From NCBI GenBank assembly GCA_963813115.1, contig CAWEXS010000001.1, positions 477,845 to 541,844 on the forward strand: a stretch of DNA of 64,000 bases, given 5' to 3'. This DNA comes from an uncultured Solirubrobacterales bacterium (GTDB lineage: Bacteria > Actinomycetota > Thermoleophilia > Solirubrobacterales > Solirubrobacteraceae). Shown here in pieces: positions 3,297 through 50,644 of the stretch (positions are counted from its first letter, which is position 1; each line of letters opens with the position of its first letter). Both the position numbers and the translations under genes were made by a program. Below the pieces are notes generated by a model, which saw only the letters and a program-made list of their open reading frames with translations, was not told where the DNA came from and made no database searches.

Positions 3297-3380
3297 TGCG
3301 GATGAGAGGACTCGAACCTCCACCGGGTTGCCCCGACACGGACCTGAACCGTGCGCGTCTACCAATTCCGCCACATCCGC
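3297..3380 (-). tRNA. tRNA-Leu(CAG)
   Basis: Reverse complement GCGGATGTGGCGGAATTGGTAGACGCGCACGGTT-CAG-GTCCGTG...GGTTCGAGTCCTCTCATCCGCA; long variable arm; CCA not encoded. Confidence 0.95.
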
Positions 3381-3482: not shown

Positions 3483-3555
3483 GCCGCCATCGTCTAGGGG
3501 ACTAGGACGCCGCCCTCTCACGGCGGTAACACGGGTTCGAATCCCGTTGGCGGTA
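3483..3555 (+). tRNA. tRNA-Glu(CTC)
   Basis: GCCGCCATCGTCTAGGGGACTAGGACGCCGCCCT-CTC-ACGGCGGTAACACGGGTTCGAATCCCGTTGGCGGTA; canonical Glu D-arm. Confidence 0.95.
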
Positions 3556-3740
3556 TTTTCTCAGCAGGCCCGGGTCCCGCAGGGGCGCCGGGCCCGCCCG
3601 GCTGCGGGCCGCCGGAGTGCTCGGGAGGCTCTGTTTGGCCTTCCTCCAAGCGGTCTTGGCAACTGTGTGTAGCCCTGTTTATACGGGCACAAAAGCGCGC
3701 GTTTCTGACCCGCGAAAGCGAATTCCGTGACACAACGTTT

Positions 3741-8736: not shown

Positions 8737-9285
8737 ATGTCCTTCTCCAACATCAACCGCGTGGTGCTCGTGGGTCGTCTCACGCGCGATCCGGAGCTGA
8801 GGGCGCTGCCCTCCGGTCAGAGCGTTTGCGGGTTGCGGGTGGTCTGCAACGGCACGCGCCGCGACGCCGACGGCACCTATCAGGGGCGACCGAACTACTT
8901 CGACGTGAGCGTTTTCGGCGCCCAGGCCGAGAACGTCAGCCGCTACACCCGACGGGGCAGCCTGCTCGCCATCGACGGGCGGCTGGAGTGGCGCGAGTGG
9001 GAAACCGCCGAGCAGCAGCGTCGCCAGACGGTGAGCATCGTGGCCGACAGCATCCAGTTCCTGGAAAGCGCCCACGCAACCGATCGCGGTGGGGAGGATG
9101 ACAGCGGCGGCGCAAGTGGCGGTGTGACTGGTAGCGCGGGCGACGGCGACGGCGACGGCAAAGGCGACAGGGACGGGGATCGCGACGGGGATCGCGGTGG
9201 CGACGGGGACGGCGGTGGTGCGGAGGACGACGGGGAGCCCGCCCCGGCCTCCGGGGCTCGTGCTGAGCAGGCGCTCGTCTTCTGA
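8737..9285 (+). CDS. ssb: Single-stranded DNA-binding protein (probably a second copy)
   Basis: 'NINRVVLVGRLTRDPELR' OB fold; AAGGAG RBS before ATG8737; Gly/Asp-rich tail. Confidence 0.92.
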   Translation: MSFSNINRVVLVGRLTRDPELRALPSGQSVCGLRVVCNGTRRDADGTYQGRPNYFDVSVFGAQAENVSRYTRRGSLLAIDGRLEWREWETAEQQRRQTVSIVADSIQFLESAHATDRGGEDDSGGASGGVTGSAGDGDGDGKGDRDGDRDGDRGGDGDGGGAEDDGEPAPASGARAEQALVF

Positions 9286-9394
9286 GATCCCGGCGATAGA
9301 GAACGCGGGGGCGGCAGCGCGCCGGGGTGGATCGCGCCGGGCCGCGCCGGGCTGAAGGGCTCGCGCGCGTTGCAAGGCGTAGACTGCCGCCTCC

Positions 9395-9434
9395 GAGTCA
9401 CCAGCATCGAATCACCCGCATTGAGTCACCAGCA
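9395..9434 (+). repeat. Three 14-bp-period direct repeats ahead of the MaoC operon
   Basis: GAGTCACCAGCA (9395), GAATCACCCGCA (9409), GAGTCACCAGCA (9423). Confidence 0.8.
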
Positions 9435-9468
9435 CTTTGTCCCGTGCGCACGCAAGGAGACCCAACCG

Positions 9469-9912
9469 TTGCCAGTCAATACGCAAGCGATCGGTAAGAA
9501 CTACGAGCCCACGCTCTACGCGGTGGGCCGTGAGAAGATCAAGGAGTACGCCCGCGCCGTGGGCGAGAGCAACCCGCGTGCACCTCGACGTCGAGGCGGC
9601 CCGTGCGGCCGGCTACGCCGATGTCGTTGCGCCGCCGATGTTCGCCGTCGTCTACTGCGCCCCCTCGGTCGGGCCGCCCGATCTTCGACCCCGAGATCGA
9701 GCTGAACTTCGCGATGATGGTCCACGGCGGCCAGGAGTTCGAGTGGGGTCCCGTGGTCGTCGCCGGCGACGAGATCACCACGACTGCCAGCGTCAAGGAC
9801 ATCTCCGAAGCGCGACGGCCGCGGCTACTACGTCTTCGAGTCAGTCTCCACCAATCAGCGCGGCGAGCAGGTCTGTCGCGGGACGTGGACCAACATCGTG
9901 CGAGGAGTGTGA
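9469..9912 (+). CDS. MaoC-like dehydratase subunit (HadA/FAS1-like), split by about 3 frameshifts
   Basis: Fragments in successive frames: 'VGREKIKEYARAVGESNP', 'VHLDVEAARAAGYADVVAPPMF', 'MMVHGGQEFEW', 'TWTNIVRGV*'. Confidence 0.75.
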
Positions 9913-49019: not shown

Positions 49020-49115
49020 GCGCCTGTAGCTCAGTGGTCAACGGCAACCGCGAGGGTGCCAAAGAGCGGCGGTCTTTCAAACCGCAGGTCGAGGGTTCGA
49101 TTCCCTTCAGGCGCA
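49020..49115 (+). tRNA. Atypical 96-nt tRNA, anticodon TTC (nominally Glu), with a hairpin inserted in the D-loop
   Basis: Acceptor GCGCCTG/CAGGCGC, D-stem GCTC/GAGC, anticodon stem GCGGT/ACCGC, loop CT-TTC-AA, T-arm GAGGG-TTCGATT-CCCTT; 31-nt D-loop. Confidence 0.85.
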
Positions 49116-49177: not shown

Positions 49178-49393
49178 CTACCGCATGTAGATCGCCGGAC
49201 GGTACTTTGGCTCGGGAATCGGCTTGTTCGCTTCTCGTGCTGCGGCGAGCCATGCTTCCTTGGCGCGCTCGACTTCAGCCAGAGCCTGTTCGGGGCTAGA
49301 GCCGAACGCCGAACAGGCCTCCAGATCCGGGATGTCGGCGATATAGCTTGAGTCCTCGTCGCTGTAGAAGACGTTGATGTGATAATCGCTCAT
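49178..49393 (-). CDS. hicB: HicB-family antitoxin
   Basis: 'YIADIPDLEACSAFGSSPEQALAEVERAKEAWL...PIPEP'. Confidence 0.9.
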   Translation of the reverse strand: MSDYHINVFYSDEDSSYIADIPDLEACSAFGSSPEQALAEVERAKEAWLAAAREANKPIPEPKYRPAIYMR

Positions 49394-49395
49394 CG

Positions 49396-49647
49396 CTAGT
49401 TCTCCAGCTTTAGATCGTAGCGCTCGACCAGCCTCAGAAACTGGCGGATCTGGTAGGGCTTGGCCTGGCCGCGCACGGCTTGAAAGTTGATCAGCTCCGG
49501 AACTGCGGGGTGAGCAAAGAGATGGTGGCTCCCGCTGACCCGGCGCAGTTCGAAGCCGAAACCTTCGATGAGCTTCTGCATGTCGCTGAACCCGACATTG
49601 GTCAGCGCTCCATGCACCAGGCGCGCAAGCAGTTTTTCTCGATCCAT
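49396..49647 (-). CDS. hicA: HicA-family toxin
   Basis: 'GFELRRVSGSHHLFAHP...AKPYQIRQ'. Confidence 0.9.
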   Translation of the reverse strand: MDREKLLARLVHGALTNVGFSDMQKLIEGFGFELRRVSGSHHLFAHPAVPELINFQAVRGQAKPYQIRQFLRLVERYDLKLEN

Positions 49648-49731
49648 CGAGAGACCGTAGGTCTCGCTTGGGACGCAACTCTTGTATCGCCCGCCCCGGC
49701 GTCAATGGATAGCGCTGCGCCCAGGTGATAG

Positions 49732-49745
49732 CGAACATATGTTCG
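49732..49745. promoter_or_regulatory. LexA (SOS/Cheo) box
   Basis: CGAAC-ATAT-GTTCG, a perfect Gram-positive/actinobacterial SOS consensus. Confidence 0.8.
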
Positions 49746-49956
49746 TTTTCCGTCCATCGGCCGGTCTACCCTCAAGCTCTCGGTTCGGAAGGTCGCCCGA
49801 GCCTGGCTCTCGGGGGAGGAGGGGATAGTGCGACCGTAGTAGGAGGATTTGAGATGCAGCATCCCCTTATGCGTGTACACGAAGGTGGATTGGCGGCAGT
49901 CGATGCGGGCGAACTCGCGATGCGCGAGGCCTCCCGTGAGGTGGTGGAGGGCCTGG

Positions 49957-50409
49957 CTAGGGCTTGTCTGACGGAGGGCTTGACGAATGCTGATCGCGCG
50001 CTGCTGGTGCGGACTCAGCGGTGCTTTGCTCGGATTGGAGGGATCGCTGCTCGAGATCTCCTTGGAGGGTCACCAGGTCTGGGTCCTTCCCATCCCCGGA
50101 GAGGCGACTGAGCAGATCCTTGAGCGTGTCTTTCACGTCGTCAACGGTGCTCTCAATGCGGTCCAGCTGGTTTTTCGTGTGGGCCTCTGGAAGGAAGAAC
50201 TCACTTATGTCAAAGCCGAACTCGGCCCCGATGCGTTCTAGGGCGTCCTCATGAGGCATGTTTTCGGCGGCTTCCCATCGTTGCCACTGCCGCGTTTCCG
50301 CTCCGACGCGCTCGGCCGCCTCGTCCTGGGTGAGTGGTTTTCCGCCTCGGCCATTCTCTATTCGTGCTCGCTGGAGTCGTGCTGCCATCCGCTCCTTTGC
50401 CTTAGCCAT
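49957..50409 (-). CDS. XRE/Cro-CI-family HTH repressor-like protein
   Basis: 'RLQRARIE...LTQDEAAERVGAETRQWQRWEAAENMP...LERIGAEFG'; ATG50409 inferred as start. Confidence 0.85.
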   Translation of the reverse strand: MAKAKERMAARLQRARIENGRGGKPLTQDEAAERVGAETRQWQRWEAAENMPHEDALERIGAEFGFDISEFFLPEAHTKNQLDRIESTVDDVKDTLKDLLSRLSGDGKDPDLVTLQGDLEQRSLQSEQSTAESAPAARDQHSSSPPSDKP

Positions 50410-50644
50410 ATGCGACTTCACGCTAGGTCCCATCGTCCTAGCCCACAACGTCACCTTTTGCCGTATATTTGCCAGAAAATGACGCATAGATCGACAGACG
50501 CTTGTCTGCGTTGACAAGGATCGAGCCTGGCAAGCGCGACGCACGCTCGCCAGGCTGGCTAAATGGACTGGAAGTCGCCTGCGGAGATGCTGCCGGGCGG
50601 ACTTACAAAGCAGGATCAGTCAATCGAATGAGTCTTTGACACAC

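Follow-up and report, generated by a model that had tools for sequence, protein, structure and literature searches.

A tRNA(UUC) with a fifth arm in its D-loop as the probable GAA decoder of soil Solirubrobacterales

Transfer RNAs that depart from the usual shape include those with long variable arms, the tRNA-Sec and tRNA-Pyl forms, the allo-tRNAs and the armless mitochondrial tRNAs. The class II tRNAs (Leu, Ser and bacterial Tyr) and tRNA-Sec are the closest to the molecule described here, in that the ribosome tolerates an extra helical arm, or a larger D-arm, which serves enzymes as an identity mark of structure rather than of sequence. In class II tRNAs, however, this arm lies in the variable region (positions 44-48) and in tRNA-Sec it is the D-stem itself that is lengthened to 6 bp, whereas the present locus encodes a separate hairpin in the D-loop, after position 20. 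To our knowledge, a bacterial elongator tRNA with a separate D-loop helix is not listed in textbook or review accounts. The literature searched, PMC7609411 and PMC9976931 included, yielded no account of a bacterial tRNA in which a helix branches off the D-loop, and the match obtained there for a "long D-loop" concerns a 10-nt loop only.

Short inserts within the D-loop of a tRNA gene are also known as introns, which occur at D-arm positions in archaea and some eukaryotes (PMC7609411). These are flanked by a bulge-helix-bulge and removed by the splicing endonuclease, whereas the present insert is found in a bacterial host, has no such motif, is of fixed size, forms a covarying helix and is present in RNA contigs. 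In tRNA gene recruitment, or alloacceptor remoulding, the body of one tRNA takes the slot of another via an anticodon change and the original gene is lost (PMC3923123); the known cases are four-arm cloverleaves, whereas here a new arm is involved, in two GTDB families and in phages. Phage tRNA arrays, finally, can hold the five-arm tRNA beside ordinary tRNAs, and variants with other anticodons occur in phages, but the chromosomal five-arm copy is the host's only GAA decoder and not an accessory. In the reading that we prefer, a working five-arm tRNA has probably taken over the GAA slot, replacing tRNA-Glu(UUC); we put its probability at roughly 0.7.

The gene was found in the window, that is, the whole stretch of 64,000 nucleotides analysed. 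Its features, and the tRNA-Glu(CUC) gene of the same window, are the following.

49020 to 49115, + strand: whole five-arm tRNA gene, 96 nt, no CCA encoded (Rfam RF00005, model positions 1-71)
49020 to 49026, + strand: 5' strand of the acceptor stem, GCGCCUG, partner 49108-49114; pairs standard in all sequences
49029 to 49032, + strand: 5' strand of the D-stem, GCUC, partner 49064-49067 (GAGC); invariant, 100% paired
49033 to 49063, + strand: D-loop of 31 nt, made of A14, G15, U16, G18, G19 and U20, a CAAC spacer, the hairpin, an AA spacer and A21
49043 to 49060, + strand: fifth arm of 18 nt, in which GGCAACC and GGGUGCC form a 7-bp stem (one A.G mismatch) closed by a GCGA tetraloop
49069 to 49085, + strand: anticodon arm, stem GCGGU/ACCGC and loop CUUUCAA (from the sequence and the Rfam alignment)
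49076 to 49078, + strand: anticodon UUC, flanked by U33 and A37, reading GAA and possibly GAG (from the sequence)
49086 to 49090, + strand: variable loop AGGUC, 5 nt, with residue 47 (unlike canonical tRNA-Glu)
49091 to 49107, + strand: T arm GAGGG-UUCGAUU-CCCUU, in which 3 of the 5 pairs covary
[quoted passage not shown]
3483 to 3555, + strand: canonical tRNA-Glu(CUC), the sole Glu-type tRNA body in the genome (ARAGORN and Rfam)

From end to end, the five-arm gene is read as GCGCCUG-UA-GCUC-[AGUGGU CAAC GGCAACC GCGA GGGUGCC AAA]-GAGC-G-GCGGU-CUUUCAA-ACCGC-AGGUC-GAGGG-UUCGAUU-CCCUU-CAGGCGC-A. The Rfam model RF00005 covers 49020-49115 completely with 66.4 bits, for a gathering score (cut-off) of 29 bits, and places a 25-nt insertion in the D-loop. 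The cloverleaf with U8, A14, G18-G19, U33, a UUCRANY-type T-loop and a 7-nt anticodon loop is present, the nucleotides on which the L-shape depends are kept (U8, A14, G18, G19, G15 with C48, U33 and the T-loop UUCGAUU) and the four standard stems are 100% paired in 34 distinct sequences. The D-loop departs from what is expected of a tRNA, with 31 nt against about 7-11 nt. The first-pass annotation of this DNA had described four pairing stems, a 31-nt D-loop and, at 49043-49060, a 7-bp hairpin with one mismatch and a GCGA loop, inserted after G18-G19-U20 and leaving the A before the 3' D-stem (A21) intact; this anatomy proved exact. The same annotation had hesitated between tRNA-Glu(UUC) and tRNA-Lys(UUU). 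The anticodon is UUC and not UUU, and a normal tRNA-Lys(UUU) gene is located elsewhere in the genome.

ARAGORN made no call for the five-arm gene, whether run on the window or on the complete genome. CCA is not encoded in any tRNA gene of this genome, the five-arm gene included, and the promoter scan detected no sigma-70-like site upstream of it. Several other tRNA-like loci were observed. An ordinary tRNA-Leu(CAG) gene (window 3297-3380, - strand) diverges from the tRNA-Glu(CUC) gene at 3483-3555 (+ strand). ARAGORN called neither a weak tRNA-like gene of 73 nt (contig C4, 205735-205807, - strand; 29.5 bits), in which the anticodon is CAU and the D-arm aberrant, nor a partial tRNA-like fragment (contig C2, 815418-815468, + strand; 32.5 bits). 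Conversely, ARAGORN calls of 87-97 nt for "Val", "Met", "Leu" and "His" (C1:775426-775522, C1:801895-801981, C2:743004-743090 and C2:1214799-1214889) are without Rfam support and look like false positives, not extra long tRNAs.

In order to establish whether the fifth arm is a selected structure, folding of the single sequence was compared with the variation among relatives. The fold of minimum free energy recovers the arm; the z-scores, -1.8 for the whole tRNA and -1.2 when the D-loop is folded by itself, are not significant. A covariance model was built on the genus alignment, and the 100 copies aligned to it gave 34 distinct sequences. In these, 98.3% of the cells of the extra helix are paired and compensatory changes are seen in six of the seven hairpin pairs, one of which occurs as U-A, A-U, C-G and G-C. 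The observed covariation was reached by none of 500 shuffles and was destroyed when the partner strand was shifted. The hairpin loops of the relatives are UUCG, UACG, UAAC, UCAC, GCGA or GCAA; while the loops switch among the chromosomal copies, the stem remains at 7 bp and the total at 96 nt. The D-loop flanks, AGUGGUCAAC and AAA, do not vary among the 34 genus sequences, the anticodon loop is unchanged in 98 of 100 chromosomal copies, and acceptor pair 6-67 covaries between C-G and U-A among the aligned relatives. Judged by this covariation, the extra arm is a selected structural helix, at once the most sequence-variable and the best shape-conserved part of the molecule. The pairing that the first-pass annotation had read in one sequence, and for which it had looked to covariation, is in this way borne out over 34.

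Of 36 species genomes from the same GTDB genus, 34 contain an ungapped 96-nt homologue with 82-92% identity. An exact-pattern scan of the GTDB species representatives yielded at least 120 loci, several of them on closed chromosomes; among the matches listed, all came from MAGs of uncultured Solirubrobacterales, Solirubrobacteraceae or Thermoleophilia, obtained in many studies and on many platforms. Within the family (151 genomes, 51 genera), the 96-nt matches were confined to the window's genus, and the best matches in the other genera were ordinary tRNA-Arg(UCU) or tRNA-Lys(UUU) genes of 73-75 nt. When the covariance model was run over the order, 62 genomes out of 401, belonging to 4 of the 93 genera, were positive. 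The four carrier genera are that of the window and three of another family; the carriers are all uncultured MAGs, 59 of the 62 having one match and 3 a second, divergent one.

The gene does not occupy the same place in the two families. Here the neighbourhood is coaE, uvrB, a DivIVA-like gene, the tRNA, small HicB/HTH ORFs and uvrA, and in the other family the tRNA belongs to a cluster with a class II aaRS, an MFS and an SDR gene. A locus common to both families was therefore rejected, the gene being found with uvrB/uvrA in the one and after the aaRS-MFS-SDR cluster in the other. The small ORFs between the tRNA and uvrA (window 49178-50544) gave weak matches to a HicB-like antitoxin and to HTH_31, both below the Pfam cut-offs, and may be what is left of an inserted element. 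A search of this genome showed no att repeat. In 13 relatives (G009, G011, G027, G031, G032, G034, G233, G410, G417, G460, G495, G520 and G539), the 3' half of the five-arm tRNA (from about position 39/50 to 96) is repeated 1-20 kb from the intact gene. Such partial copies are the footprint of integrative elements that have the five-arm tRNA gene as attachment site.

To follow the insert at the RNA level, soil metatranscriptomes were searched. None of the runs holding the window's own allele was labelled as RNA, and the majority allele was used instead; at least 14 metatranscriptome runs contained the majority-type 96-mer in full. In four metatranscriptomes, RNA-derived contigs span the whole tRNA and its insert with 0 differences and no gaps. 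In two runs, the depths of the five-arm contigs (19.5 and 9.5) are close to those of tRNA-Glu(CUC) pieces in the same runs (15-24 and 8-11). No insert-less joint was present in the contigs of the four metatranscriptomes, as far as contigs, which hide variants, can tell: those of Logan drop rare variants. An abundant RNA contains the insert; a processed form, minor or major, may be concealed by the contigs, and metatranscriptomes can contain DNA, so that a carry-over of DNA is possible.

These data bear on the reading in which the insert is an intervening sequence, the hairpin being cut out of the 96-nt precursor and the halves religated into an ordinary tRNA(UUC) of 72-75 nt. Its precedent is the D-arm introns of archaea and some eukaryotes (PMC7609411), the conserved hairpin could serve as a processing signal, one carrier phage encodes an RNA ligase, and a spliced form could be hidden in assembled contigs. 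Nevertheless, the insert lacks a bulge-helix-bulge: it is a plain helix between the single-stranded flanks CAAC and AA, with no 3-nt bulges on a 4-bp helix. Nor is a bacterial endonuclease known to us that would cut a tRNA intron at this D-loop position, and this also speaks against excision. Group I introns are ten times longer, their self-splicing core measuring some 200 nt at least, and usually interrupt the anticodon loop; they are excluded for an insert of 18-25 nt in the D-loop in which the Rfam scan found no intron family. Moreover, the size fixed at 18 nt, the thermostable loops of the UNCG/GNRA type and the strict covariation are what is expected of a structural arm, and the RNA contigs bear the insert, are jointless and have depths like those of a normal tRNA. 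We therefore regard excision as improbable.

The place of the five-arm tRNA in decoding was examined through the set of tRNA genes. In this genome, ARAGORN and Rfam detected tRNA-Glu(CUC), tRNA-Lys(UUU), tRNA-Lys(CUU) and both tRNA-Gln, and no second tRNA with a UUC anticodon was found by ARAGORN, Rfam or a pattern scan. When 61 genomes of the genus were queried with the Glu(CUC) gene and with the Glu(UUC) gene of a sister genus, each showed one full-length Glu-type locus, the lone exception being a 3.3-kb contig whose bin is 7% contaminated; the anticodon was CUC in 11 of the 11 Glu-type genes fetched. Within the family, two Glu-type tRNAs are found in nearly every sister genus, and the second ones inspected were canonical UUC tRNAs of 72-73 nt. 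In the second carrier family, the BLAST query for canonical tRNA-Glu(UUC) was too divergent to give a full-length match even in controls, and a body-independent pattern (UUC anticodon arm and loop plus T arm) was substituted. Applied to 40 carrier genomes from the two families, of which many consist of a single contig, it detected no tRNA genes but those of the five-arm type; its two stray matches in carriers, one in a coding region and one unresolved, were not tRNAs. In non-carriers the pattern gave canonical-type matches, four of which were verified by Rfam alignment.

Since the carriers show only the five-arm UUC tRNA, and the sister genera and non-carriers the canonical one, the gain of the five-arm gene, in the genomes compared, is coincident with the loss of canonical tRNA-Glu(UUC), in two separate families. 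The two tRNAs have in common the residues U34, U35, C36 and A37, as well as A73, which is that of the local tRNA-Glu(CUC), and the decoding slot GAA, and their genes are mutually exclusive across genera. They differ in that the body of the five-arm tRNA is unrelated, with a 31-nt D-loop holding a helix, and is not a homologue of the tRNA-Glu of the family.

The tRNA set of the carriers weighs against a tRNA-shaped RNA with a task away from the ribosome (decoy or shield against a toxin, regulator, enzyme substrate), GAA being then read by other means. In carriers there is no other GAA-reading tRNA, and yet GAA makes up 14% of Glu codons and is found at invariant Glu positions; in addition, the chromosomal gene is nearly always single-copy, its anticodon loop is near-invariant, and every nucleotide of the tertiary interactions for the L-shape is kept. 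In favour of an off-ribosome role, the same body is found in phages with a variety of anticodons and with arms of 16-46 nt, some variants fit the rules of no synthetase (a UGC copy without G3.U70, an ACC variant with A73), and phage tRNAs that evade anticodon nucleases are known and offer a precedent. Such a role is, in our estimate, somewhat more improbable still than excision. The first-pass annotation had offered three options, a functional tRNA with a novel arm, a precursor from which the insert is excised and an RNA with a non-translational role. The first fits the genus-wide conservation, the covariation of the arm, its status as sole UUC tRNA, its presence in phage arrays and the insert-bearing RNA contigs, while the second is disfavoured and the third unlikely.

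The meaning of GAA in carriers was examined next. In the 980 long ORFs of this genome, GAA represents 14% of Glu codons, or 8.6 per 1000 codons. The GAA codons of rpoC and rpoB fall in the motifs GMGAEAI (RpoC), LEAE and KGEMALGKN (RpoB) and align, at three informative positions, with a conserved Glu of solved mycobacterial and other polymerases. The four GAA codons of the GluRS gene align, in five sister-genus orthologues, with E, D or Q, and with a few neutral residues at a variable site; K or R is never found opposite these four codons in the five orthologues. Judged by these positions, GAA still encodes glutamate; the sample is small but consistent.

As to charging, this genome has one GluRS-family gene, no GlnRS gene and a gatCAB operon, and a non-discriminating GluRS followed by transamidation is therefore expected. 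In the gatC-gatA-gatB operon (C1:632809-636163), frame changes were noted in gatA (near 633944-634041) and gatB (near 634751-634806), and probably reflect errors of the long-read assembly, not true frameshifts. In the order-wide search, GluRS-family matches numbered one per sampled carrier genome and two in most sister genera of the family.

The strong determinants of bacterial GluRS in the anticodon loop are U34, U35, C36 and A37 (PMC9976931), and all four are found in the five-arm loop CUUUCAA. [quoted passage not shown] The five-arm tRNA has C11-G24, C13-G22 and a residue 47; a D-arm of the Glu type is present in the local tRNA-Glu(CUC). For ArgRS, which reads A20 at the variable pocket, the main determinants are A20 and C35 (PMC9976931). 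In the five-arm tRNA, position 20 is U and then the insert, and position 35 is also U. LysRS also reads U36, in place of which C36 stands here. From these residues, the genome's single GluRS most likely charges the five-arm tRNA with glutamate, mainly through the anticodon loop.

The enzyme itself is ordinary. Its identity to GluRS sequences of the same genus is 75-79%, to those of sister genera 66-77% and to those of the other carrier family 62-67%. A co-transfer of GluRS with the tRNA is thus rejected as far as sequence can tell, since identity follows taxonomy, and so is a co-adaptation, since no carrier-specific column or indel appears in an alignment of 31 sequences. With a GluRS that is ordinary and without a carrier-specific residue, the arm as a positive determinant is disfavoured: it would not be one that required a change of GluRS.

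Charging of the five-arm tRNA according to its body, with Lys or Arg, or ambiguously, would mean that GAA is reassigned or deliberately mistranslated. The body is indeed not Glu-like, the D-arm identity elements of tRNA-Glu are absent, and the five-arm acceptor stem GCGCCCG/CGGGCGC is that of the genome's tRNA-Arg(ACG), its first five pairs being those of tRNA-Lys(UUU). But GAA stands opposite conserved Glu in RpoB and RpoC and opposite E, D or Q, never K or R, in the GluRS orthologues, the ArgRS determinants A20 and C35 are both absent, C36 replaces the U36 of LysRS, and a GAA usage of 8.6 per 1000 is normal for a genome of 68% G+C. Reassignment is thus very improbable.

The weakest reading, a decaying pseudo-tRNA or an assembly artefact, to which the missing ARAGORN call and the non-significant single-sequence fold could point, is counted as already refuted: the gene with its insert is present, at exactly 96 nt, in at least 120 independent assemblies including closed chromosomes, which rules out an artefact, the arm covaries in a conserved gene, which rules out decay, and the gene is present in RNA libraries. 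The signs that the first-pass annotation had named as counting against the gene, namely no relatives with the insert, no conserved pairing and no transcription, were looked for, and none of them speaks against it.

The origin of the working five-arm tRNA was approached through its body, which belongs to a generic GUAGCUCAG class. Without the insert, it is 75-82% identical to tRNAs for Arg, Thr, Asp, Met and Lys, and the five-arm gene was never matched by BLAST with Glu(CUC) or with the sister-genus Glu(UUC) as query. The tRNA-Arg(ACG) was considered as donor for its identical acceptor stem and stays one candidate among others, as the similarity of 75-82% extends to several tRNA types and Arg is not singled out. 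Since the five-arm body is not Glu-like, the event looks like a tRNA gene recruitment, in which the anticodon and identity of tRNA-Glu would have shifted onto a foreign body.

Five-arm tRNAs on the same body were also found in 11 IMG/VR contigs. One phage contig has 14 ordinary tRNAs and a five-arm UUC tRNA, together with genes for ribonucleotide reductase and RNA ligase, and no canonical tRNA-Glu was found in this array by ARAGORN anticodon typing. A second phage array comprises 27 tRNAs including a five-arm UUC tRNA, as counted without anticodon typing. The phage copies have stems of 7-8 bp with UUCG or CUCG-type loops and entirely different stem sequences. Variants of the body with anticodons CCU and UGC occur in phages, one of them in a tailed phage, and MAG or mobile variants have UUU (three copies with a 46-nt insert), UGU (35-nt insert) or ACC; the arms of phage and mobile variants span 16-46 nt. 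AlaRS needs G3.U70, a pair that the UGC copy does not have, and the ACC variant has A73. Because the same body occurs with UUU, UGU, CCU, UGC and ACC, the arm is not strictly tied to Glu. Furthermore, an additional UUC tRNA in one genome of the genus is built on an unrelated body (acceptor strand GCUGGCG) and has a 7-bp hairpin with a CAAG loop at the same D-loop site. On the evidence of the phage copies, the other anticodons and this second, unrelated body, the arm is, as these comparisons would have it, a recurrent and transferable design, usually but not always linked to UUC. The patchy, polyphyletic distribution, the differing loci and the carriage by phages favour horizontal transfer and at present suggest that the five-arm tRNA spread in this way.

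Some elements close to these variants were noted in passing. The three UUU copies, on contigs L035, L036 and L037 of G011, are identical 124-nt five-arm tRNAs with a branched D-loop insert of 46 nt, and are likely part of a repeated mobile element. In a tailed phage (L186, IMGVR_UViG_3300022718_000281), which also holds a five-arm tRNA(CCU) at 3503-3600, positions 1723-1813 contain a 91-nt tRNA-Sec-like or allo-tRNA-like gene that ARAGORN calls Glu ttc; its Rfam tRNA-Sec score is 39 bits, below the cut-off of 47. Another contig (L187, IMGVR_UViG_3300050821_006825) has at 9130-9491, at the end of a phage tRNA array, an ARAGORN-predicted tmRNA-like gene with a 32-residue tag, and also encodes RNA ligase and ribonucleotide reductase.

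In the reading that we prefer, the locus would be transcribed into an elongator tRNA with a normal acceptor stem, D-stem, anticodon arm and T arm and with a fifth helical arm. After U20, a 4-nt spacer would lead into the 7-bp hairpin with its tetraloop and a 2-nt spacer would follow, so that the extra helix would point outwards at the elbow, from the variable pocket exposed to solvent. [quoted passage not shown] In carriers, the canonical tRNA-Glu(UUC) would have been displaced by this recruited foreign body, spread horizontally.

For the role of the arm, which is the weakest step of this reading, we tentatively lean towards a bulky mask, or anti-determinant, at position 20/20a-b, which would spare a foreign body with a Glu anticodon from mishandling. 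The idea is attractive because the arm sits where ArgRS reads A20 and at the same site where the amidotransferase GatCAB gauges the D-loop (PMC9976931). Alternatively, and this is the main other role envisaged, the arm may shield the tRNA from a tRNA-targeting nuclease. A broader proposal joins these elements into a new structural class of bacterial tRNA: a portable D-loop arm module, borne by phages with several anticodons, would have entered soil Solirubrobacterales in at least two horizontal moves and displaced an essential canonical tRNA, the arm being selected as a steric shield or anti-determinant against a nuclease or against non-cognate enzymes that read the variable pocket. Taken in its entirety, this proposal is possible and still doubtful.

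If the 96-nt form works, the ribosome, EF-Tu, RNase P, the CCA-adding enzyme and GluRS must all accept a bulky appendage at the elbow. The structural tolerance of translation would then be wider, and the D-loop would be a natural site for engineering handles on tRNAs. As ARAGORN misses the five-arm gene, annotated genomes of these abundant soil bacteria may seem to be without a GAA decoder. The transplanted identity also bears on GluRS identity in the indirect Gln pathway. It would be a natural case in which a foreign body, with no more than the identity elements of the anticodon loop retained, has taken the place of an essential tRNA.
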